A stretch of DNA of 57,206 nt, taken from positions 1-57,206 of the forward strand of contig MHUV01000002.1 in assembly GCA_001823545.1 (NCBI GenBank), given 5' to 3'. This DNA comes from Candidatus Yonathbacteria bacterium RIFCSPLOWO2_01_FULL_43_27. GTDB lineage: Bacteria; Patescibacteriota; Minisyncoccia; Phycocordibacterales; UBA1550. Below the pieces are notes generated by a model. That model worked only from the letters and a program-made list of their open reading frames with translations. It was not told where the DNA came from and ran no database searches. A program made the translations under genes and the position numbers. Shown piece by piece: positions 2,197-20,770 of this stretch. Numbering within the stretch: the first letter of the stretch is position 1; each line of letters begins with the position of its first letter.

Positions 2197-2865
2197 ATGA
2201 CAGAAACTACGACACAACAGAATACACCAAACCAAACAGCTGCTCCTTCACCTGTGCGTGGAACATCGAGTCCTCGTTCTTTTGGTGGCCCTCGTGGTGG
2301 TGCACCTCGTGGAGGCGCACGTTCTGGCGGACCTGCAGGACGCGGAGGTGGCGCACGCGGTGGCGCTCCTCGCAAAGGTGGCCCACGTGGTGGCGGTTCT
2401 TTCGAACGTGTTCGTCCCGAGTACGATAGTAAACTCATTCAGATCCGTCGCGTAACACGTGTGGTCTCTGGTGGTCGTCGTTTCTCATTTTCTGTAGCGC
2501 TCGTTGCAGGGAATCGCAAGGGTTCTGTTGGTGTTGGTATCGGCAAGGCTGCAGATACTTCACTCGCTGTTGAAAAGGCAACAAAAAATGCAAAGAAAAA
2601 TATGATTAAGGTGCGCCTTACGAACGAGATGTCCATCCCTCACCGTGTTGAGGCAAAAGAAGCAAGTGCATGCGTAATGATTATGCCAGCACCAGGCCGT
2701 GGGATGGTGGCAGGAAGCTCGGTACGTAATGTCCTCGAACTCGCGGGTATTAAAAATGTAAGCGCAAAGATTCTTTCTGGTTCAAAAAATAAATTGAATA
2801 ATGCTCGCGCAGCGGTTAAGGCACTTGATCAGATTCAGACAAAGAAACCAGCTAAGACTGCATAA
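2197..2865 (+). CDS. rpsE: 30S ribosomal protein S5 with a roughly 70-aa N-terminal Arg/Gly/Pro-rich extension
   Basis: The core RFSFSVALVAGNRKGSVGVGIGKAADTSLAVEKATKNAKKNMIKV...GIKNVSAKILSGSKNKLNNARA is S5. The N-terminus (GGPRGGAPRGGARSGGPAGRGGGARGG) is an RGG-like low-complexity tail. Confidence 0.9.
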   Translation: MTETTTQQNTPNQTAAPSPVRGTSSPRSFGGPRGGAPRGGARSGGPAGRGGGARGGAPRKGGPRGGGSFERVRPEYDSKLIQIRRVTRVVSGGRRFSFSVALVAGNRKGSVGVGIGKAADTSLAVEKATKNAKKNMIKVRLTNEMSIPHRVEAKEASACVMIMPAPGRGMVAGSSVRNVLELAGIKNVSAKILSGSKNKLNNARAAVKALDQIQTKKPAKTA

Positions 2866-2882
2866 TATTCTTAGAGATTTTA

Positions 2883-3353
2883 TTGACGCTCAACTTATAC
2901 ACTACTATGCAAATTCATGAAGTAACATCAAAGACACAGTTTAAGACCAAGAAGGTTGTTGGTCGTGGCGGAAAACGCGGTAAAACTGCTGGTCGTGGAA
3001 CCAAAGGACAGAAGGCACGCGCAGGTCATCGCATCCGTCCTGCTATTCGTGACATCATTAAAAAGCTTCCTAAGCGCCGTGGTGAAGGTGTATCGGTTAA
3101 TCGTTTCAGTACACCGTACGCTCATACAGCAACAATCTACCTTGATGTACTCAGTGCTTCATTTGGTGCAGGTGAACGCGTAACTCCTAAGGCGCTTCTC
3201 GAAAAAGAACTTATTAAGAAGAGTGGTAATAAAATTCCTGCAGTAAAAATCCTCGTACGTGGTACGATTGATAAGAAGCTCATCGTGCGCGGATGTGCAG
3301 TTTCAGAAGGGGCAAAGACAGCAATCGAAAAGTTGGGTGGTACTGTTAAGTAG
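2883..3353 (+). CDS. rplO: 50S ribosomal protein L15. L30 is not encoded between S5 and L15.
   Basis: GRGGKRGKTAGRGTKGQKARAGHRIRPA is the L15 glycine-rich motif. The start may be the internal Met at 2907. Confidence 0.9.
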   Translation: MTLNLYTTMQIHEVTSKTQFKTKKVVGRGGKRGKTAGRGTKGQKARAGHRIRPAIRDIIKKLPKRRGEGVSVNRFSTPYAHTATIYLDVLSASFGAGERVTPKALLEKELIKKSGNKIPAVKILVRGTIDKKLIVRGCAVSEGAKTAIEKLGGTVK

Positions 3354-3359
3354 TCAATT

Positions 3360-4631
3360 ATGACAACTATCGTTCAAAAATTAAAACTTATTATCGGAGA
3401 CGCAACGCTCAGAAACCGAGTACTTTTTGTTCTTGGTGCGCTTGTTATTTTCCGCTTTTTTGCGAACATCCCAATTCCAGCTGCGCTCGGACAAAATCTC
3501 ACTGCACTCATTTCTCAGAATCAGGCACTTGGCTTCCTTAATCTTTTGACAGGAGGTGGCCTTTCTGCTGTTTCTCTCGTAATGCTTGGTGTTGGCCCCT
3601 ACATTACCGCATCGATTATTATGCAACTTCTTACGATGATGTCGCCAAAATTTAAGGCGATGCACAGTGAGGAAGGGGAATTGGGTCGTCGTAAGTTTAC
3701 TCAATATTCACGTTTACTTTCCGTTCCGCTTGCTATTACCCAAGGGTATGGACTTCTTGCGTACTTGAGCAGTCAGGGTATCCTTCCTGCACTCACACCA
3801 CTTGATTACTTAATCAATGTCTCGATCGTTGTAGGAGGTTCACTTTTCCTTATGTGGATAGGCGAGCTTATATCAGAGTTCGGTATTGGAAACGGTGTTT
3901 CACTGATTATCTTTGCAGGTATCATTGCACAACTCCCTACCACATTAGGACAACTTGTTTTTACGTTTGATGTGTCACAGATTCCTTTATACTTCGGCGC
4001 TCTTGTCGCTATTCTTTTAATTGTGCTCGCGGTGGTGTATATAACCGAAGCAGAGCGTCCGGTTCCTGTTACCTATGCAAAACAGTCGCGTGGGGGAAGA
4101 ACCACTGCTGGTGGAACAACATATCTTCCACTTCGTGTTAATCAGGCAGGCGTTATCCCTATCATCTTTGCGCTTTCAATACTCATTTTCCCTAACGTTA
4201 TTGCAAATGCGCTTGCTTCACTCGGAAATGAATCAGTGCAAGTTATTGCAACGTTTATTAAAGATGCACTCGCAAATATTTGGGTAAATGGCATTTTGTA
4301 CTTTGTCCTTGTTTTCATCTTTACGTATTTCTATACCGCTATCACCTTTGACCCTGACGCAATCGCTACCAACCTTCAAAAGAATGGCGCGTTTGTACCG
4401 GGTATTCGTCCTGGAACACATACTTCAGAATACCTTGCAAGGATTTTGACACGCCTCACACTCGTAGGTGCTGTATTCCTTGGTATCATTGCGGTGTTGC
4501 CACTCATTATGCAGGAGGTTACTAACGTGCAATCGCTTGCAGTTGGTGGTACAGGACTTCTCATCGTGGTGTCGGTAATCCTCGAACTCGTAAAGAAAGT
4601 GGATGCTCAGGTTTCAATGAGAGAATACTAA
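3360..4631 (+). CDS. secY: Preprotein translocase subunit SecY
   Basis: A 423-aa polytopic membrane protein with SecY motifs (LGQNLTALISQNQALGFLNLLTGGGLS...GVGPYITASIIMQLL), sited after L15. Confidence 0.95.
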   Translation: MTTIVQKLKLIIGDATLRNRVLFVLGALVIFRFFANIPIPAALGQNLTALISQNQALGFLNLLTGGGLSAVSLVMLGVGPYITASIIMQLLTMMSPKFKAMHSEEGELGRRKFTQYSRLLSVPLAITQGYGLLAYLSSQGILPALTPLDYLINVSIVVGGSLFLMWIGELISEFGIGNGVSLIIFAGIIAQLPTTLGQLVFTFDVSQIPLYFGALVAILLIVLAVVYITEAERPVPVTYAKQSRGGRTTAGGTTYLPLRVNQAGVIPIIFALSILIFPNVIANALASLGNESVQVIATFIKDALANIWVNGILYFVLVFIFTYFYTAITFDPDAIATNLQKNGAFVPGIRPGTHTSEYLARILTRLTLVGAVFLGIIAVLPLIMQEVTNVQSLAVGGTGLLIVVSVILELVKKVDAQVSMREY

Positions 4632-5043: not shown

Positions 5044-5643
5044 ATGGACTTACAAACAATCATCTTTATTGGACGCTCTGGTGCGGGCAAAGGGGTTCAG
5101 TCGGCGCTCCTTCAAAAATTTCTCAATGAAAAAACTCCCGACGTTCCCATAATCTATTTTGAGACTGGTCAATATTTTAGAAAGTATATGCAGAGTGGTG
5201 GATACACATGGGATCGCGCGCGGGGTACTATTGTGAAAGGAGAGCGTCAACCTGATTTTCTCGCGGTGTGGATATGGGTAAATAATTTTATAGAAAAAGT
5301 TAAAGGGGGAGAACACCTGATTTTTGATGGTACACCTCGTTCGCTCTGGGAGGCAAAAATGCTTCATACGGCACTTCCTTTTTACGAGAGGATGCGTCCT
5401 ATGGTGATTCACCTAGAAATTTCGCGTGAAGAAGCTGAGAAACGTTTGCGAAATCGAGGGAGAGCTGATGATGTTGACGCTGATGCAATAGAGCGACGAT
5501 TTGCGTGGTATGAGCGTGATGTAGTCCCCGCAGTTGATTTTTACCGCGAGGACACAGCGTACCGTTTTCTTGAAATTAATGGTGAACAATCACCCGAAGA
5601 TGTTCATCAGGAAATCGTAGCGCGTTTGATGAGCGAGAAATAG
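5044..5643 (+). CDS. adk: Adenylate kinase (short type, no LID insertion)
   Basis: P-loop GRSGAGKG. ETGQYFRKYMQSG aligns with the STGDMLR NMP-binding motif. DGTPRS corresponds to DGFPRT. The gene sits after secY, as in the canonical operon. Confidence 0.8.
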   Translation: MDLQTIIFIGRSGAGKGVQSALLQKFLNEKTPDVPIIYFETGQYFRKYMQSGGYTWDRARGTIVKGERQPDFLAVWIWVNNFIEKVKGGEHLIFDGTPRSLWEAKMLHTALPFYERMRPMVIHLEISREEAEKRLRNRGRADDVDADAIERRFAWYERDVVPAVDFYREDTAYRFLEINGEQSPEDVHQEIVARLMSEK

Positions 5644-8584: not shown

Positions 8585-9652
8585 TTACTCCTTTTTGTTT
8601 TTAAGTGCTTCTCCGAGGGCTGTTCCCATCGCCATGAGATCCTTGAATCCTTCTGATCCTACGATGATCGTTTTCTGTCCAGGGTTATTGGTGATTGCAC
8701 GCGCTGTTTCGGTGGAAAGGATCACCTCGGAGGGGAGATTAAGGTCTTCTTGCATTTTCTTTAGACCTAACGTCCTTCCGTCGAGTTCAGCTTTTATCGC
8801 GAATCCCTTACCTTCACCTTCGAGAATAGCTGCTTTCTTTCCAGCCTCTGCTTTGATCACACTCGCTTTGCCAAGTGCCGTTTCCTCAGCGATCTTTTGA
8901 ACGGTCTTATTAAGCTCATGTGAAAAGGAGATGTTTTTAATACGCACACTTTCGAGGACTATTCCCCATGTTGCAACGTTTGTTTGGATCTCCTCTGTTA
9001 GTTTTTTGTTGTAACTTTCGAAGTCTGCAATGACTTGAGCGGGGGTAACCTTGCCGAATTCTTCGCTCAAAACCGAAACACAGAGATCTTGAAGCTGGTT
9101 CAGTGCTTCGTCTACAGTCTTGATTACCGTAAGAAACGCGATGTAATCTGAAATACGGAACCTTACGATAGGGACTACCTCTTCAATCAGTCGCATATCA
9201 AGAGGGTCCTTTTCGAGAACGTCTTTAGGTGATCCTGTTGCAGTATCTTTTTTCTCTGGTTTTCCAAAGGGGATTCTGATCGGATGATATTTCCCCGCCG
9301 GAGGAAGACCTTCTCCTCGGTATATGTTCTCTGGATTATCGGGGAATTCCTTTTGTATGATCAGACGTGTTTCTTTGATAAGCTTGAAGAACCCAAACGG
9401 AACAAGTATGAACCCCGATGAGACTTGGTCAATGGGTCGACCAAGAAAGATCCGAGCTCCGAGTTCGGTTGGACCAACTTGATGGAGACTTACTGCAGTA
9501 TAGATTACCGCAGTAAGAGCAACCGCAAGTCCCCAGTTCCATTCAAGCTCCCCTCCAATAGTACTCGTGTAAAAGGCAAAAAAAACAGAAACAACAAGAA
9601 ATACAATGTAGATTATTGCGGTAATGCCCCAAAACTTTTTATTTATCTTCAT
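8585..9652 (-). CDS. SPFH/band-7 (stomatin/flotillin-like) membrane protein
   Basis: An N-terminal TM helix is followed by an SPFH-like domain. The C-terminal coiled region AEAGKKAAILEGEGKGFAIKAELDGRT resembles YqiK/flotillin. A GGGAGG Shine-Dalgarno precedes MKINKK, so the start is placed at 9652. Confidence 0.8.
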   Translation of the reverse strand: MKINKKFWGITAIIYIVFLVVSVFFAFYTSTIGGELEWNWGLAVALTAVIYTAVSLHQVGPTELGARIFLGRPIDQVSSGFILVPFGFFKLIKETRLIIQKEFPDNPENIYRGEGLPPAGKYHPIRIPFGKPEKKDTATGSPKDVLEKDPLDMRLIEEVVPIVRFRISDYIAFLTVIKTVDEALNQLQDLCVSVLSEEFGKVTPAQVIADFESYNKKLTEEIQTNVATWGIVLESVRIKNISFSHELNKTVQKIAEETALGKASVIKAEAGKKAAILEGEGKGFAIKAELDGRTLGLKKMQEDLNLPSEVILSTETARAITNNPGQKTIIVGSEGFKDLMAMGTALGEALKNKKE

Positions 9653-9807
9653 CTCCCTGCCTCCCTTAGAGTTTTTATATGATGTGCAATTGTCAAAGAA
9701 CGACAATTTATCCTATATATATTATAGCAAATTTATGTAAAATGTCAATAGTTCAATAAAGGTTAATGGATATTTCTTTCTTTAAGGATTTCATCAGATT
9801 ATTTGTG

Positions 9808-9887
9808 GGCACGGGGAGATTTGAACTCCCAACCCTTGCGGGATGCGCTTCTGAGACGCACGCGTATACCAATTCCGCCACGTGCCC
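9808..9887 (-). tRNA. tRNA-Leu (anticodon CAG), type II with a long variable arm
   Basis: The reverse complement reads GGGCACG-TG-GCGGAATTGGTATACGC-G-TGCGT[CTCAGAA]GCGCA-TCCCGCAAGGGTT-GGGAGTTCAAATCTCCC-CGTGCCC-A. The acceptor pairs fully. The D-arm matches bacterial tRNA-Leu. Confidence 0.8.
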
Positions 9888-10193
9888 ATATTGTATTTGT
9901 ATTGAAGAGGGAAGCGTGTCTATTTTTGTGCCGAGGAGAGGACTCGGTCAAGCGCTCGCTCGTCGTCACCACGTTTTTCGCTCTCTCCCTACAGGAGCAG
10001 TACACCTTTTGGCTCTTTTGTTTCGCCTGCTCACAAAACAGCTTAAAAGGTCTTGCGGAAGCTCCACGTATTCGCTTCCTTACCTGCTTGTGCGACCCAT
10101 CGAGCACGACGGGTACCCGCACTCGCTTTCGAGTCCTCTCCTCCGCCTACAAAATTTAGTTACGAAAAGCTACCACTTTTCGTTTCCAATTTT

Positions 10194-10236
10194 GTGCCGA
10201 GGAGAGGACTCGAACCTCCACAGGTTACCCCTTCCT
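10194..10236 (-). pseudogene. Orphan 3' portion of a Leu-type tRNA (variable arm, T-arm and acceptor 3' strand) with no contiguous 5' half
   Basis: The reverse complement reads ...GGGGTAACCTGTG-GAGGTTCGAGTCCTCT-CCTCGGC-A. It is nearly identical to the 3' part of tRNA-Leu(UAG). No matching GCCGAGG acceptor strand or valid anticodon stem lies in the adjoining 5' sequence. Confidence 0.5.
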
Positions 10237-10343
10237 AATGCCTGTTTCGCGTACGCTCAACAACGGCATTTGCGCATACGCGCACCGGATGAAAATCAAA
10301 GCAGTTTGATTTTCATTCCCGCGTCAGTTCGTCACGCGCAAAG

Positions 10344-10425
10344 TGCTGGGGAGAGGACTCGAACCTCCACAGGTTACCCCGACTGCTCCTAAGGCAGTTG
10401 CGTCTACCAATTTCGCCACCCCAGC
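10344..10425 (-). tRNA. tRNA-Leu (anticodon UAG)
   Basis: The reverse complement reads GCTGGGG-TG-GCGAAATTGGTAGACGC-A-ACTGC[CTTAGGA]GCAGT-CGGGGTAACCTGTG-GGAGGTTCGAGTCCTCT-CCCCAGC-A. Confidence 0.8.
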
Positions 10426-10437
10426 ACTTTAGGCGCG

Positions 10438-10467
10438 ACTTGCGTCTACCAATTTCGCCACCTCGGC
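10438..10467 (-). pseudogene. Orphan 5' portion of a Leu-type tRNA (acceptor 5' strand and D-arm only)
   Basis: The reverse complement reads GCCGAGG-TG-GCGAAATTGGTAGACGCAAG. The D-arm is identical over 21 nt to tRNA-Leu(UAG), then the sequences diverge. Its acceptor GCCGAGG is exactly complementary to the CCTCGGC of the 3' fragment at 10194-10236. Confidence 0.5.
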
Positions 10468-10957
10468 TTCTTCATAACAACTTACACTAAATAACAAGAA
10501 AAAGCGAGTTTTGAGATTGATCTGAATCTCGTTTAGTGACGTTTGTGGTCACAGATAATTTCCTCGCCGTCGCTCGGAAATTTCGCAGTCACAACTTTTT
10601 GCTCGACCGCCGTCTCGCAAAAGTCGCGACCCCTCCTCACTCGTTTTTCTTGCTAGAAAAACGAGTTCCGGCCTTGCGAAGCTCCATGTATTCGCTTCTC
10701 ACCTGGCTCGCTGTTTTGTTTTGCTAAACAAAACATGCTTCGCCTTGCACAAACTAAAAATCTGCCGCAGGCGCTGTTTTTCTTTACGTTTGAATTGCTA
10801 TTTTTGTGGTCACAAGTCACTAAGTCTACTCGTGCGAGTACGCACTGCGTGGACGTAAGTGCTCGCGACCCCGGCTCGTGGTTTTGTGTGCTCACAAAAC
10901 ATCACTGCGCCTTGCACAATGAGAAAATGGTGCGCAGGCACCATTTTCTTTTCATTG

Positions 10958-11030
10958 TGCACCCACCTGGACTCGAACCAGGGACCATCTCCTTAAGAGG
11001 GAGTTGCTCTACCAACTGAGCTATGGATGC
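10958..11030 (-). tRNA. tRNA-Lys (anticodon CUU)
   Basis: The reverse complement reads GCATCCA-TA-GCTCAGTTGGTAGAGC-A-ACTCC[CTCTTAA]GGAGA-TGGTC-CCTGGTTCGAGTCCAGG-TGGGTGC-A. The acceptor has one G-U pair. The anticodon stem has an A-A mismatch at 27-43. Confidence 0.7.
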
Positions 11031-11142
11031 AGACCTATATTCAAAGAGTATACACAAAAATAAAGATTTTGGAAGAGTTTGTGCTTTGAGTTTAATAATT
11101 AGAGGCAAGTAAGATTAACCTAAGTTTTTAAAATACACGAAA

Positions 11143-11205
11143 TCCGTATTAGCTCCTCGGCTCGGAAGTGAGAAAGATTACTTTCTCACTTCACTCGCTC
11201 TACGT
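11143..11205 (+). repeat. Dispersed roughly 60-nt repeat (family A), copy 1; it contains the hairpin GTGAGAAAG-atta-CTTTCTCAC
   Basis: GTATTAGCTCCTCGGCTCGGAAGTGAGAAAGATTACTTTCTCACTTCACTCGCTCTACGT. A near-identical inverted copy lies at 20281-20340. Confidence 0.8.
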
Positions 11206-11243
11206 CGCTAATAATATTGCTCGTAGTTCCTGATTTGTTTAGT

Positions 11244-11324
11244 GGGTCAGGAGGGAATCGAACCCTCAATCCTTTCGGCGGGAAATTTTAAGTTTCCTGT
11301 GTATACCATTCCACCACTGACCCT
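11244..11324 (-). tRNA. tRNA-Leu (anticodon UAA)
   Basis: The reverse complement reads GGGTCAG-TG-GTGGAATGGTATACAC-A-GGAAA[CTTAAAA]TTTCC-CGCCGAAAGGATT-GAGGGTTCGATTCCCTC-CTGACCC-A. Confidence 0.8.
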
Positions 11325-11326
11325 TT

Positions 11327-11803
11327 TTAGGATTTTTTCTTTCGATTAAGTCCTCGATGCGTTGGTTTTAAACTGTGGCAATTTGGACAAAGAATCCGAA
11401 GATTCTCTATTCTGTTGTCTGTTCTGTCCCCATTTATATGGTCAAGCTCAACTGGGATTCTACCATCAATCGACTTTTTCGCCCAGCCACATTCTTCGCA
11501 TTGTGAATTTTTTAAATTATCTTTGAAGAGTCGTCGTTTCAGCTTGTAGCTTTGGAAACGGCTATCTCTCGTAAGGATCTTATTGAGAGGTATGAGTGGC
11601 TTACCGATTCCCTTTAGTCCTTTACTCCATCCAATGCCAGTAAAGTGTTTAATATCCAGACCGTAATCTTTGACGGCATTGTTAATTTGCGCATAATTTC
11701 CTCCTGCCTCTTTTAGATTGAGTTTTTTGAGAACTTGCCGTACGCTTGTAGAGTTTTTAACAGCGACCCTCAATTGTTCTTCTGTCCAACTTCGTTTCCT
11801 CAT
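11327..11803 (-). CDS. HNH endonuclease (homing-endonuclease-like), free-standing within the tRNA island
   Basis: C-terminal ELDHINGDRTDNRIENLRILCPNCH is the classic HNH core, with an additional CEECGW zinc-finger pair. The N-terminal region (WTEEQLRVAVKNSTSVRQVLKKLNL...GGNY) looks like a small DNA-binding module. The start is placed at MRKRSW. The stop lies 3 nt from the tRNA-Leu(UAA) 3' end. Confidence 0.85.
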   Translation of the reverse strand: MRKRSWTEEQLRVAVKNSTSVRQVLKKLNLKEAGGNYAQINNAVKDYGLDIKHFTGIGWSKGLKGIGKPLIPLNKILTRDSRFQSYKLKRRLFKDNLKNSQCEECGWAKKSIDGRIPVELDHINGDRTDNRIENLRILCPNCHSLKPTHRGLNRKKKS

Positions 11804-11914
11804 GCATAAAAGTATACCATAATGGAAGGCATAGAGGAATACATGTACATAGTTGCCTACCTTTTTAATTAAGAAACTCAATTATATTGCAATTCTTTCT
11901 TGAGGCGTGGGCTC

Positions 11915-11980
11915 CTCTCGGTCACGAGTTACTAAGTGTGCTCGGGCGACTACGCCCTGTGCGCACTAAGTACTCTCGAC
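11915..11980 (+). repeat. Dispersed roughly 65-nt repeat (family R), copy 2
   Basis: GTCACGAGTTACTAAGTGTGCTCGGGCGACTACGCCCTGTGCGCACTAAGTACTCTCGACCCGGGCTCG. Its reverse complement recurs at 20641-20705 with a few substitutions. A diverged copy lies at 10806-10877. Confidence 0.8.
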
Positions 11981-12085
11981 CCGGGCTCGCTGTCGCTTTG
12001 CGACATGCTCCGCCTTTCGATTCTCGACGCAGGCAAAGCAGTTTGCCTGCTCCCACGCCAAGAAAATTCTCTAAGAATTTTCTTG

Positions 12086-12157
12086 AGGCGTGGGCGAGAA
12101 TCGAACTCGCGCATAGGGGATTTGCAGTCCCCCGCCTTACCACTTGGCCACCACGCC
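12086..12157 (-). tRNA. tRNA-Cys (anticodon GCA)
   Basis: The reverse complement reads GGCGTGG-TG-GCCAAGTGGTAAGGC-G-GGGGA[CTGCAAA]TCCCC-TATGC-GCGAGTTCGATTCTCGC-CCACGCC-T. The discriminator U73 is the Cys identity element. Confidence 0.85.
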
Positions 12158-12225
12158 GAACATTAATTTTTATAACCTAGAACCATTCTTCGCAATCAAG
12201 TTTGTATCAAAACCTAGCACTCATC

Positions 12226-12552
12226 TTATCCTTGATTGAGGAGCTCGTCAATTTTTTGACGATTGCGCTCACCTTCGTCAATTTTGATTTCAAGAACGGG
12301 GAGTGCGCGTAACTTTGCGTGCGTACCGATATACTCACGGAGCTCGGTACGCTTTCTTTTTGCAAATTCAAGCGCGTTTGCTTCTTCGCTGGTAGGGAAG
12401 GTAGTGATATAGATCGTTGCGCGCTTGAAGTCAGGCGAAATAGTTGCGTCGGTGATCGTGATGAGAGAACGTGGTCCTGCCTCGCGGGTAAAAAAGGTTG
12501 CCGCAAGTTCACGCAGAACCCCTCGCATTTTATCTTGTCGTTGAGAAGTCAT
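12226..12552 (-). CDS. rbfA: Ribosome-binding factor A
   Basis: RGVLRELAATFFTREAGPRSLITITDATISPDFKRATIYITTF matches the RbfA KH-like pattern. The gene lies downstream of infB. Confidence 0.85.
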   Translation of the reverse strand: MTSQRQDKMRGVLRELAATFFTREAGPRSLITITDATISPDFKRATIYITTFPTSEEANALEFAKRKRTELREYIGTHAKLRALPVLEIKIDEGERNRQKIDELLNQG

Positions 12553-12563
12553 ATAGATTGATC

Positions 12564-14087
12564 TTATTTTTCTATCATCATAAACGCCTCGAGGGTATCG
12601 CCCGGCGCAATTTCAATCTTTGATTCAACCATGAGCCCACACTCCATGCCTTCGCTTACTTTTTTGGCAGACACTTTTGATTGTTGAAGTTCGAGCACTT
12701 TGCCACGACCGACCTCGGTATCGCGACGAAGAATTTTAACCTGCGCATCAAGCACAAGTTCTCCCTTGGTAACCTTGCCTCCGATAACCTGCTTGTGTTT
12801 CATCGCACTAAAGGTCTTGAGGACTTTCAGCGCACCAACAGTTTCTTCACTCGTGAATTTTGGTGTACGACGAACAAGCTCTTCCTCAACCCATTCAAGA
12901 AGTTCGTAAATGATCGTGAATGTTTTAATTGTAGCGCCAAAACGAAGGGCGATATCTTGTGCGCTGCGCGAAACCTGTGTATTGAAGCCGATAATGATAG
13001 CACCGGGTGCACCCGACGCAAGTTTTGCATCATTTTCACCAACAGCTCCAATTCCTGAACTGATAATTTTGAGTGCTACACGTTCTTTTTTAATCTTGCT
13101 TAACTCCTTTTCTACTGCTTCGAGGGTTCCCGCAACATCTGTTTTGATAATTATCGGTACAACAAACACTCCGCTAGGGACAGAAGATGATGCCATTTCT
13201 TTTTTTGAAGACGGGGAAGCAACATCTGTTTGATTTTCTAAACGTGCTTTCTCCATTTCTTTTTTTGTTGCATACGCACGGAATGTTGCGCCTACACGAG
13301 GAAGAATGTCAAAACCTGTAATTTGGACAGGAGAAGAAAATGTTGCTTCAGGAATTTGTTTACCAAGGAAGTTTTCAATTGCGCGTACAGGAGCGGTACT
13401 ATCTTCGGCGACAATGAACATACCTTTTTTGAGGGTGCCGTTGGTGATAATGAGTGTTGCCGAGGTTCCACGAGCTGGTGCAACGTGTGATTCTACTACC
13501 ACACCTTCTGCCAGTAATTTGCTATCACCGAGGAGGTTGCTCATTTCGGCAACAAGGAGAACCATGTCGAGGAGTTCAGGAATGCCGGTGCCTGCTTTTG
13601 CGGAAACAGGAACAAACGGCACATCGCCACCAAATCCTTCGAGGTAAATTTCATTTTCAGCGAGATTTTGTTTCGTGCGCTCGATATTTGCGTTTGGCTT
13701 GTCGATTTTATTAATGGCGACAATGTAAGGTATGTTCGCCTCTTTGATAGCCGAGAGTGCTTCTTTTGTCTGCTCCTTAACGCCATCTTCTGCAGAAACA
13801 ACAAGAATAGCAATATCGGCAATACGAGCACCTCGTGCACGCATCTTTGAGAATGCGTGATGTCCGGGAGTATCGAGAAACGTAATACTGTCCGATTCGG
13901 CAGGAGTTTTTCCTTTGCGATAAACCTCATATGCAGAAAGATGTTGCGTGATACCGCCTGCTTCTCCTCCCACCACATTTGTTTTGCGAATGTAGTCCAA
14001 GAGTGTTGATTTTCCATGGTCAATATGCCCCATCACAACGACGATAGGAGGGCGGGGGATCAATGTTTGAGAAGTGGATTTTGTCAT
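12564..14087 (-). CDS. infB: Translation initiation factor IF-2 (short form lacking the long N-terminal domain)
   Basis: GHIDHGKSTLLD (G1), DTPGH (G3) and NKIDK (G4) are present. The C-terminal domains are typical of IF-2. Confidence 0.95.
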   Translation of the reverse strand: MTKSTSQTLIPRPPIVVVMGHIDHGKSTLLDYIRKTNVVGGEAGGITQHLSAYEVYRKGKTPAESDSITFLDTPGHHAFSKMRARGARIADIAILVVSAEDGVKEQTKEALSAIKEANIPYIVAINKIDKPNANIERTKQNLAENEIYLEGFGGDVPFVPVSAKAGTGIPELLDMVLLVAEMSNLLGDSKLLAEGVVVESHVAPARGTSATLIITNGTLKKGMFIVAEDSTAPVRAIENFLGKQIPEATFSSPVQITGFDILPRVGATFRAYATKKEMEKARLENQTDVASPSSKKEMASSSVPSGVFVVPIIIKTDVAGTLEAVEKELSKIKKERVALKIISSGIGAVGENDAKLASGAPGAIIIGFNTQVSRSAQDIALRFGATIKTFTIIYELLEWVEEELVRRTPKFTSEETVGALKVLKTFSAMKHKQVIGGKVTKGELVLDAQVKILRRDTEVGRGKVLELQQSKVSAKKVSEGMECGLMVESKIEIAPGDTLEAFMMIEK

Positions 14088-14698: not shown

Positions 14699-15889
14699 AT
14701 GAAGAGAATATATATGGATTATGCGGCAGCAACCCCCGTTGACGAAAGGGTGGCACGGACGGTTTCTGTACTCAACAAGAAGCACTATGCCAACCCGAGT
14801 GGTCTTCACAAAGAAGGGCAGGAGACGCGCCGTGTTTTCGAGGAGGCGCGAGGTGCGGTTGCGCAGAATATGGGGGCGCACGCCGATGAAATCGTTTTTA
14901 CGAGTGGCGCGACTGAGGCAAATAATATCGCGATTCAGGGGGTCGTGCGCGCTGCGCGTGCGCGCGGTATTACACGCCCTCATATCATTGTTTCAGCGAT
15001 AGAGCACGCGTCTGTTCTCGAAACCGCGCGAATGCTTTCTGGAGAAGACGTGCGTGTTGAACTATTGCGCGTAGATCGTAAGGGAGTCGTGGATGTGCGT
15101 GAACTTCGTAAGATTATCACTCCTGAAACCGTGCTTGTTTCCGTGATGTATGCGAACAACGAGATCGGCACCATCCAACCTCTTCGTGAAATTGCAAAAG
15201 AAGTTCGTCATACACGGAAAATGCATGCTTCTCTTTATCCATATTTTCATACCGATGCTGCACAAGCATCCAACTATCTCGATACCAACGTTTTGCGATT
15301 GGGTGTTGACCTGATGACACTTTCGTCAGGCAAATCCTATGGTCCACGAGGTGTCGGTGTTCTTTTTGTAAAGCGTGGGGTGAACCTCGTGGCGCTTTCG
15401 TACGGCGGTGAGCATGAGCGGGGACGACGTCCAGGAACAGAGGTGGTGGCGCTTGCGTGCGGGTTTGCCGAAGCGCTCGTTCTTGCAGAGAACATAAAAC
15501 CCAAAGAAGTGCTACGAATAAAAAAACTCCGTGACACGCTTGCAGAAAAAATTCTCAAAAAAGTTTCAGGCGTAGTGGTTAATGGTGATCTCGCACATTC
15601 ACTTCCTAATCTTTTAAGCATTTCTCTCGAGGGGGTTGAGAGTGAAGCACTTATTATTTACCTCGACGCACAAGGGTTTGCAGTTTCAGGGGGAAGTGCG
15701 TGCAAGAGTGCTTCTGGTAAGATGTCGCACGTTTTGACGGCTATAGGATATACGAATGAAAAAAATATGGGGGCTATCCGTTTTTCACTCGGACGATTTA
15801 CCAAAAGTGAAGATATTACGCGTCTCGTGAAAGAACTTCCTGCGATGGTGAAGGTACTTCGTGACGCGCGAAAGAACAGTGATTTTTAA
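14699..15889 (+). CDS. Cysteine desulfurase (class V aminotransferase, IscS/NifS-like)
   Basis: MDYAAATPVDERV start. SGATEANNIAIQG. PLP-lysine region SSGKSYGPRGVG. Active-site cysteine region SGGSACKSAS. The start was moved to 14699 (MKRIYMDYAA). Confidence 0.9.
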   Translation: MKRIYMDYAAATPVDERVARTVSVLNKKHYANPSGLHKEGQETRRVFEEARGAVAQNMGAHADEIVFTSGATEANNIAIQGVVRAARARGITRPHIIVSAIEHASVLETARMLSGEDVRVELLRVDRKGVVDVRELRKIITPETVLVSVMYANNEIGTIQPLREIAKEVRHTRKMHASLYPYFHTDAAQASNYLDTNVLRLGVDLMTLSSGKSYGPRGVGVLFVKRGVNLVALSYGGEHERGRRPGTEVVALACGFAEALVLAENIKPKEVLRIKKLRDTLAEKILKKVSGVVVNGDLAHSLPNLLSISLEGVESEALIIYLDAQGFAVSGGSACKSASGKMSHVLTAIGYTNEKNMGAIRFSLGRFTKSEDITRLVKELPAMVKVLRDARKNSDF

Positions 15890-20519: not shown

Positions 20520-20567
20520 CAATACAAAAAACGCCCCTCAAGGGGCGTTTTTTGTATTGTGCGTAGG
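20512..20567. terminator. Terminator hairpin embedded in a 56-nt perfect palindrome that includes the tRNA-Tyr 3' acceptor strand
   Basis: CCTACGCACAATACAAAAAACGCCCC-tcaa-GGGGCGTTTTTTGTATTGTGCGTAGG. The core hairpin plus T-run is at 20526-20553. Confidence 0.75.
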
Positions 20568-20640
20568 AGCGACTGAACTGCTTCAGTCGCGTGCAGGATT
20601 TGAAAGGCGGAACATGTTTTTGTAATCAAAAACAGTGAGC

Positions 20641-20705
20641 CGGGGTCGCGAGTACTTAGTGCGCGCAGGGCGTACCCGCCCGAGCACACTTAGTAACTCG
20701 TGACA
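20641..20705 (-). repeat. Family R repeat, copy 3 (inverted relative to copy 2)
   Basis: CCGGGGTCGCGAGTACTTAGTGCGCGCAGGGCGTACCCGCCCGAGCACACTTAGTAACTCGTGAC equals the reverse complement of 11915-11980 with a few substitutions. Confidence 0.8.
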
Positions 20706-20770
20706 AAATCCTACGCACAAAATCTTACCCCACAAAGCGAATGCTTTGCGGGGTAAGATTTTTGTAGCGT

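Follow-up and report, generated by a model that had tools for sequence, protein, structure and literature searches.

How does a bacterial tRNA gene come to lie in two pieces on either side of another, complete tRNA gene? The question is raised by a chromosome segment of Candidatus Yonathbacteria, which belongs to the Patescibacteria, also called the candidate phyla radiation (CPR), recovered from Rifle groundwater; this segment of 57,206 nucleotides (nt), taken as a whole, is referred to here as the window. In its tRNA cluster, an intact gene for tRNA-Leu(UAG) is enclosed by an outer 5' piece (O5) and an outer 3' piece (O3) of a second tRNA. A sequence-only reading of the window had picked out this arrangement and took it for a tRNA gene that insertion or recombination had disrupted or duplicated; that the tRNA might be split or trans-spliced was considered much less likely. 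The present analysis supports both judgements by way of an intact orthologue, the collinearity of the pieces and the recognisable parts of the inserted DNA. It also goes further, as the hairpin noticed between the pieces is part of a recurring module and the nested layout is found elsewhere, making it systematic rather than a one-off.

All parts of the nested locus are read on the minus strand. O5 (10467-10440, 28 nt, GCCGAGGTGGCGAAATTGGTAGACGCAA) comprises nt 1-28 of a tRNA, namely the acceptor strand GCCGAGG and the complete D-arm, and is preceded by the motif TTTAGTGTA. It is followed by the 5' strand of a clamp helix (S5, 10439-10426, GTCGCGCCTAAAGT, inverted repeat I4), the intact inner tRNA-Leu(UAG) gene (10425-10344, with acceptor GCTGGGG/CCCCAGC and discriminator A73; ARAGORN places its end at 10343), the 3' strand of the clamp (S3, 10343-10331, CTTTGCGCGTGAC) and an 11-nt linker (10330-10320). 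Three hairpins come next: hp1 (10319-10287, GGAATGAAAATCAAA CTGC TTTGATTTTCATCC), which is the hairpin with a stem of 14 base pairs (bp) and a CUGC loop already seen from the sequence alone; hp2 (10285-10271, GTGCGCGTATGCGCA), which is based on an alignment of module copies (A2) and RNAalifold; and hp3 (10269-10238, ATGCC...GGCAT), whose closing pairs change in a compensatory manner. The conserved sequence TAGGAA (10237-10232) ends this module, and O3 (10231-10195, 37 nt, GGGGTAACCTGTGGAGGTTCGAGTCCTCTCCTCGGCA) completes the outer shell with a variable arm, a T-arm, the acceptor strand CCTCGGC and A73, corresponding to tRNA positions of about 45-73. Between O5 and O3 lie 208 bp (10439-10232), of which about 126 nt are not tRNA. 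Both pieces had at first been drawn longer, at 10438-10467 (30 nt) and 10194-10236 (43 nt); they stand as tRNA pieces within trimmed limits, and the extra bases at 10232-10236 (GGAAG) are now assigned to the TAGGRR end of the module.

The relationship of the outer pieces to the inner gene is close. O5 matches the first 28 nt of the inner gene at 26 positions (repeat family D2, 93%), and the O3 repeat, counted over 38 nt to include the base after A73, matches it at 36 (family D1, 95%). The four differences are confined to acceptor pairs 3-70 and 5-68, where they compensate each other, and the outer strands GCCGAGG and CCTCGGC are, as first proposed, fully complementary to each other. The inner gene is recognised both by ARAGORN and by the Rfam tRNA model (57.6 bits, E=5e-11), is 95% identical to a Kaiserbacteria gene (locus L069; L-numbers label the retrieved comparison loci) and is presumed to be functional. 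Scoring the isolated halves with covariance models, which the sequence-only reading had put forward as a check, is of less help: against the generic tRNA model, O3 gives a truncated match of 12.5 bits (E=2.4) and O5 gives none, the model being underpowered on pieces of 28-37 nt. A chance origin of O5 and O3 is nevertheless untenable because they are near-identical to a real tRNA at distances of 42 and 149 nt. An assembly artefact is likewise excluded: three independent contigs that cover the whole 3.2-kb cluster region, and four shorter ones wherever they overlap it, agree at 100% identity, the seven coming from different samples and assemblers.

What, then, was the state of this gene before the insert? 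An answer is provided by the orthologous locus of a sister Yonathbacteria genome (L020), whose IF-2 protein is 72% identical to that of the window. There the tRNA order is the same, Cys-Leu(UAA)-Lys-Leu(UAG)-Leu(CAG), in a compact arrangement, and a single intact tRNA-Leu(UAG) (5101-5185) carries the acceptor of the orphan pieces, GCCGAGG/CCTCGGC. The first 27 nt of O5 are identical to this gene, and a motif similar to TTTAGTGTA lies upstream of it, as it also does in L160. Among the matches listed, further intact genes with the same acceptor and a CCCATGG variable arm occur in L133, L173 and L203. O5 and O3 follow each other in the order of the gene, collinear and without overlap, and the part that is absent is nt 29-44, the anticodon arm. 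Because the L020 orthologue has the orphan-type acceptor, the pieces are collinear and only nt 29-44 are gone, O5 and O3 are best understood as the two ends of a resident gene copy. The locus combines truncated near-identical fragments with an uninterrupted orthologue in a relative, as would be expected of a tRNA pseudogene or fragment formed by insertion.

The same evidence bears on the idea that the pieces are joined, in cis or in trans, into a second functional tRNA-Leu. Perfect acceptor complementarity would be expected of such a tRNA, the clamp helix brings the two sides together in a way that superficially resembles archaeal leader/trailer pairing, and group I introns are frequent in the tRNA genes of Patescibacteria (PMC13011429). 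However, joining nt 1-28 to nt 45-73 gives a product that lacks the anticodon stem-loop, and the sequences adjoining the halves, which had correctly been said not to form a valid anticodon arm, are clamp helix and hairpin module. ARAGORN, allowed introns of up to 400 nt, returns the inner gene only, and an Rfam cmscan of positions 9000-13000 with E up to 10 yields, besides tRNA, only weak matches at chance level and no group I intron. A group I core would, moreover, not fit into the roughly 126 nt of non-tRNA sequence, a length too short for such a core. Bacteria are also not known to have the archaeal splicing endonuclease system. O5 and O3 lie within 273 nt, on one strand and around one tRNA rather than at separate loci, although no search was aimed at bulge-helix-bulge motifs. 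Since the joined pieces give no complete cloverleaf and these searches reveal no sign of an intron or of splicing, the split or trans-spliced tRNA was rejected, and an intron-containing one is scarcely credible.

The inserted DNA itself is not arbitrary. A profile built with nhmmer from the module copies of the window, L016 and L019 finds matches only beside tRNAs, with E-values of 3e-20 in the window, 3e-22 at tRNA-Leu(UAG) of L016, 3e-19 at tRNA-Tyr of L019 and about 7e-7 for each of two matches at tRNA-Ser of L119; a weaker match in L056 (5.6e-4) lies in the trailing DNA after an intact tRNA-Lys. Specifically, the tRNA-Leu(UAG) copy that holds the L016 module is truncated and again has GCCGAGG as its acceptor. 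In L019 and L119 the module follows G18/G19 of the D-loop in a truncated copy, with the intact gene lying downstream of that copy. At tRNA-Ser of L119, D-loop sequence picks up immediately behind the module, and the unit is present as three tandem repeats. When five copies are aligned (A2; four genomes, three tRNA types), 13 of 25 predicted pairs show compensatory changes, and every copy ends in TAGGRR, including those in tRNA-Tyr and tRNA-Ser contexts. Since TAGGRR ends all copies, the TTAGGA adjoining O3 is module sequence and not a remnant of an anticodon loop. The window insert has the full order of hp1, hp2, hp3 and TAGGRR, in tRNA orientation and inside a truncated tRNA copy. Ten more hairpins of the hp1 type with the loop AACTGCTT are found beside tRNA genes and oriented as these are; the window and seven other loci contain them, and two additional matches to the regular expression appear to be due to chance. 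By these sequence comparisons, the module is a real repeat family, and three other Patescibacteria genomes have it within disrupted copies of tRNAs.

The available data are compatible with a model, to which we assign a probability of roughly 0.6, in which the orphans derive from a resident tRNA-Leu(UAG) copy that was split by a composite insertion, leaving the inner gene at work and the shell as its leader and trailer. In this model, the anticodon arm of the resident copy would have been replaced by the 208-bp insert, consisting of a complete tRNA-Leu(UAG) held by the 13-bp leader/trailer helix and of the three-hairpin module that is elsewhere seated after D-loop G18/G19 of tRNA-Tyr and tRNA-Ser. 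The inner gene would supply decoding; the outer shell, lacking an anticodon arm, is incapable of it, and it would survive as leader and trailer of the inner tRNA transcript, which probably starts upstream of O5. The interiors of the inner and outer copies have remained identical, most simply through gene conversion between short repeats, and the acceptor ends, located at the homology edge, have remained different. We infer that insertion occurred by a mobile or recombinational process that targets tRNA loops and is tolerated only if an intact tRNA is restored; the gene conversion of the interiors and the single transcription unit are proposed on similar grounds.

Several observations weigh against this model. 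No relative in an intermediate state is available, the contigs of the closest relatives (IF-2 86-99% identical) all ending before tRNA-Leu(UAG), and no locus suited to comparison was obtained through homologues of the Band_7 gene downstream. No transposase, integrase or junction repeat is seen at 10440/10439 and 10232/10231, the insert being 208 bp of non-coding DNA; a direct repeat of the tRNA 3' end is present only in the DNA that trails O3. The outer pieces show no decay at all outside the acceptor, and A27, the CCTGTGG variable arm and G57 are common to the outer pieces and the inner gene and missing in relatives. With these shared derived states and the lack of decay, a plain scenario of a foreign cassette and a dying pseudogene calls for an extra step, namely gene conversion, unless the shell is under selection. 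Finally, a nested unit conserved between two other genomes, described below, hints at function rather than junk.

A shell under selection is the core of another explanation, in which a maintained tRNA-like shell of acceptor, D-arm, variable arm, T-arm and A73 closes the transcript around the inner tRNA and the module. Possible roles of such a shell are guiding or regulating the processing, protecting the ends of the transcript or serving as a tRNA-like RNA itself, and enzymes that read the acceptor/T-arm minihelix could in principle recognise it. The intactness of the outer pieces fits this explanation, as does the predicted fold of the 276-nt unit, which contains the outer acceptor, the clamp, the inner cloverleaf and the three hairpins (-118.4 kcal/mol, z = -5.3). 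Within this fold, S5 pairs with 10331-10344, and the clamp extends the inner acceptor stem by 6 and 7 bp around one C.C mismatch.

Both explanations draw on the recurrence of the nested layout in at least four other loci, namely L101, L165 and the tRNA-Leu(CAG) units of L020 and L133. The outer acceptors are complementary at seven of seven positions in each (GGGCGAG/CTCGCCC in L101, GCCCGGG/CCCGGGC in L165 and GAGCGTG/CACGCTC in both L020 and L133), as they are in the window, with the other parts heavily rearranged. Each also has a clamp helix, whose sequence differs by locus: TTCTACACAAAGT/ACTTTGTGTAGAA in L101, TTCACAAAGT/ACTTTGTGAA in L165 and CTGAACTGAG-type helices in the Leu(CAG) units of L020 and L133. 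In the window, L101 and L165 the inner tRNA takes the place of the outer anticodon arm. L101, L165 and L160 were obtained by scanning metagenomes with the tRNA-Leu 5' sequence, and the matches listed are mostly unrelated intact tRNA-Leu genes; among them, a clamp is present in 2 of 15 GCTGGGG-type tRNA-Leu genes, which are exactly the nested two. Partial layouts, with a 5' orphan and an intact gene, occur in L016, L019, L160 and L062. A count of complementary outer halves carries no information on enrichment (3 observed against 2-4 in shifted controls), and the nested cases are supported by their extended tRNA-like sequence, not by this count.

The tRNA-Leu(CAG) unit, conserved between two species (L020 5212-5491; L133 1610-1908), strengthens the case for a functional shell. 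It consists of the outer pieces GAGCGTG... and ...CACGCTC, a clamp and a structured trailer of about 140 nt, and only this unit and the tRNAs align between the two loci at the DNA level (86.7% over 324 nt). Its trailer hairpins covary (CATC/GATG versus TGGC/GCCA), the outer acceptor is identical and the inner one is changed at pair 2-71. The unit is bracketed exactly by an extended -10-like box, TGCTAGAAT, which precedes the 5' piece by about 12 nt, and by a terminator directly after the 3' piece. On the other side, the modules of L016, L019 and L119 sit in truncated copies without a 3' half and in tandem duplicates, which looks like selfish or neutral turnover, and acceptor complementarity would be expected anyway from a recently split gene. 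A functional nested precursor seems rather unlikely as the explanation of the nested locus, and the split of a resident tRNA-Leu(UAG) copy by a composite insertion is preferred.

Nearly all tRNAs of these clusters carry fragment-bearing DNA, including trailer elements downstream. In the loci examined, about 30 tRNAs are followed, at a distance of 77-318 nt, by a sense copy of their last 16 nt with 0-2 mismatches. The trailer elements share an order: a hairpin, often terminator-like; a fold-back copy, in antisense, of the tRNA 3' end, into which an hp1-type hairpin is sometimes set; a core of AAGCCGGAG, hairpin, CGAGGCGGGGTCG, hairpin and GTGAC; and a sense copy, usually starting at C56/G57 of the T-loop. 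In strict form, the core motif occurs 27 times in 1.86 Mb, and 23 of these occurrences are just downstream of a tRNA on the same strand (24 if L217, whose tRNAs are absent from the tRNA list, is included). The same architecture follows tRNAs in many Patescibacteria loci. The window has such elements, each of about 100-270 nt, after tRNA-Cys (11896-12084, minus strand), tRNA-Tyr (20521-20725, plus), tRNA-Lys (10548-10956, minus, in tandem) and O3 (9922-10194, minus), and none after tRNA-Leu(UAA) and tRNA-Leu(CAG). Their core reads AAGGCGGAGC...CGAGCCGGGGTCG...GTGAC, with two or three copies stacked after tRNA-Lys. The element after O3, which includes inverted repeats I1 and I3 and direct repeat D1, runs from a hairpin through an antisense copy of the tRNA 3' end (10157-10128) and the core to a second sense copy from the T-loop (9946-9922).

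Some substitutions in the antisense arms would, when inspected by eye, keep G.U pairing on the tRNA strand, which hints at a role at the RNA level. The foot of the clamp, GTCGCG...CGTGAC (10426-10439/10331-10343), is also the foot of the last hairpin in the trailer-element core, and this shared sequence hints that the inner tRNA may sit within a former trailer-element hairpin. The trailer element of tRNA-Cys is bracketed by an exact 17-nt duplication, GCCCACGCCTCAAGAAA (minus strand, 11896-11912 and 12079-12095), made up of the tRNA 3' end and trailer sequence.

The abundance of one-sided copies speaks for yet another origin of the nested locus, in which O5 and O3 arose by separate partial duplications and are complementary merely as copies of one tRNA. 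Beside the 3'-end copies downstream of about 30 tRNAs there are 5' copies upstream of several, and the tandem trailer arrays after tRNA-Lys in the window fit as well. Tyrosine integrases favour tRNA stem-loops as integration sites, a preference that agrees with breakpoints at the T-loop and in the anticodon region. Conceivable, if improbable, routes are the site-specific integration of small elements, leaving attL/attR-type remnants, or a tandem duplication followed by deletion. Against such an origin, the pieces do not overlap and jointly miss exactly the anticodon arm, as one split gene predicts; a single event of this kind would leave the intact gene with a mismatched hybrid acceptor stem; and no integrase gene lies near any of the elements inspected. 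Two independent events are given little weight beside the splitting of one resident gene.

Links of these elements to phages, known RNA families and mobile genes were considered. A phage origin was rejected, as blastn against phage records gave just tRNA-length matches; in two scans of viral contigs the inner tRNA had no match and the module one chance match in coding DNA. In the window and five other loci, neither the insert nor the modules or trailer elements have a meaningful Rfam match, and inspection of the trailer core by eye does not support a ribozyme of the hammerhead, hepatitis delta virus (HDV) or twister-like type. Two loci carry a GIY-YIG-like frame of about 90 amino acids, recognised by eye, at the T-loop of tRNA-Gly, the same type of site as in the trailer elements: in L053 (7759-8076) the frame is preceded by the intact gene and followed by a 3' copy of 20 nt, and in L062 (about 15036-15380) a degenerate 5' copy lies upstream and the intact gene downstream. 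These frames may represent autonomous relatives of the small elements. In L217 (IF-2 93% identical), a gene for a Y1 transposase of 224 amino acids (IS200-like, RAYT-like; 2832-3506) is located directly downstream of tRNA-Tyr, at the site of the window's Tyr trailer element, with perfect 36-nt inverted repeats on both sides; these flanking repeats are unlike the tRNA-linked modules, and an IS200/IS605 or RAYT link was rejected.

How does the locus compare with known systems? The nearest known kind is the partial, non-canonical tRNA genes of prokaryotes, in which fragments are created by integrative genetic elements (PMC9897764). The resemblance lies in partial copies beside an intact gene, breakpoints in tRNA loops, constant restoration of the intact gene and tandem accretion. 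In contrast to these fragments, the structures described here have only 100-300 bp of intervening DNA with no integrase seen, 5' and 3' pieces that enclose the intact gene, and conserved hairpin modules together with many trailers that bear an antisense fold-back copy. A tRNA-Thr gene of Caldiarchaeum subterraneum is disrupted by a 1.8-kb mobile element encoding a recombinase, a case proposed as a route to disrupted tRNA genes; there too a 5' tRNA fragment upstream of an intact copy was ascribed to insertion and recombination (PMC3293823). That system is archaeal, however, and what results are split genes or genes with introns, on which the archaeal splicing machinery acts, whereas the window has a bacterial host, a non-coding insert and a shell without an anticodon arm.

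Archaeal split tRNAs of the Nanoarchaeum type and permuted tRNAs likewise have two complementary pieces and an extra helix, but the pieces in the window belong to one locus, stand in normal order around a complete tRNA and yield no anticodon arm when joined; moreover, we know of no bulge-helix-bulge system in bacteria. The group I introns of Patescibacteria come from the same phylum and interrupt tRNA genes at or near the anticodon region (PMC13011429), whereas the insert described here matches no group I model, has a non-tRNA part that is too short, carries a whole tRNA and stands in a target whose anticodon arm is deleted rather than interrupted. In shape only, the locus recalls the tRNA-like domain of transfer-messenger RNA (tmRNA), in which the RNA ends form an acceptor and a T-arm around a large insertion without an anticodon arm; the window shell has no tag reading frame, and its interior is another tRNA. 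The locus is, in short, neither a split, permuted or group I-containing tRNA nor a tmRNA.

The genomic setting is otherwise ordinary. The neighbouring genes (infB, rbfA, clpB, RNase J and a nifS-like gene) are all housekeeping genes, and the tRNA cluster downstream of infB-rbfA encodes, on the minus strand, tRNA-Cys, Leu(UAA), Lys(CUU), Leu(UAG) and Leu(CAG); over the whole window ARAGORN reports six tRNAs and no tmRNA. An identical IF-2 protein is encoded on contigs of GCA_001825065.1 and of several metagenomes from ENA and the Joint Genome Institute (JGI). One contig with identical IF-2 (L009, 2639-2988) has a differing downstream region, in which tRNA-Cys terminates in the 3' end of tRNA-Gly(CCC) with the junction inside a common T-arm, reflecting either a real rearrangement via tRNA repeats or a chimeric assembly. 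An open reading frame (ORF) of 208 amino acids on the plus strand (9766-10392) runs antisense across tRNA-Leu(CAG), the trailer element, O3 and part of the inner tRNA; public annotations list it as a "hypothetical protein", named under Candidatus Azambacteria GW2011_GWA1_44_9. A homologue search with this ORF returned only the ORF itself, and the protein that gene callers annotate across the nested locus is almost certainly spurious.

The cluster also contains an HNH endonuclease gene (184 amino acids; 11327-11881, minus strand), which ends 3 nt before tRNA-Leu(UAA). In L033, L069 and L070 a homologue lies in the corresponding Cys/Leu(UAA) interval, L217 has one at the equivalent position after tRNA-Cys, and others occur in L059 and L079; the gene is absent from the close relatives L092 and L094 and from L020. 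This sporadic distribution is typical of a free-standing homing endonuclease gene.

Taken on its own, the nested locus represents a known kind of event in variant form; it belongs, however, to a recurrent pattern in Patescibacteria tRNA clusters that is apparently undescribed, and the literature searched contains no description of these fragment-bearing tRNA-linked structures. A bolder proposal, which is put forward tentatively and as the less probable case, is that tRNAs embedded in tRNA-derived shells, together with tRNA-templated modules, constitute an undescribed and systematic tRNA gene organisation in the Paceibacteria lineage. The modules would, on the same tentative footing, be the three-hairpin D-loop module and the trailer of about 100 nt with the core GCCGGAG...CGAGGCGGGGUCG...GUGAC. 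Two options fit this proposal: a new class of tRNA-targeting mobile element that persists only by regenerating or carrying an intact tRNA, or a functional precursor in which a tRNA-like shell hosts another tRNA instead of an anticodon arm.

Fragments of tRNAs beside tRNA genes are usually read as scars of large integrative elements; the scars described here are tiny and structured, they are shared by distant Patescibacteria while being fitted to the individual tRNA, and in several genomes a working tRNA sits exactly in the place of its broken twin's anticodon arm. These repeats are probably also the reason why tRNA clusters interrupt the assemblies of relatives. Mobile modules, if that is what they are, would represent a way to invade the single-copy essential tRNA genes of minimal genomes while the host survives; if the shells are functional, they would constitute a new kind of tRNA precursor or tRNA-like RNA.

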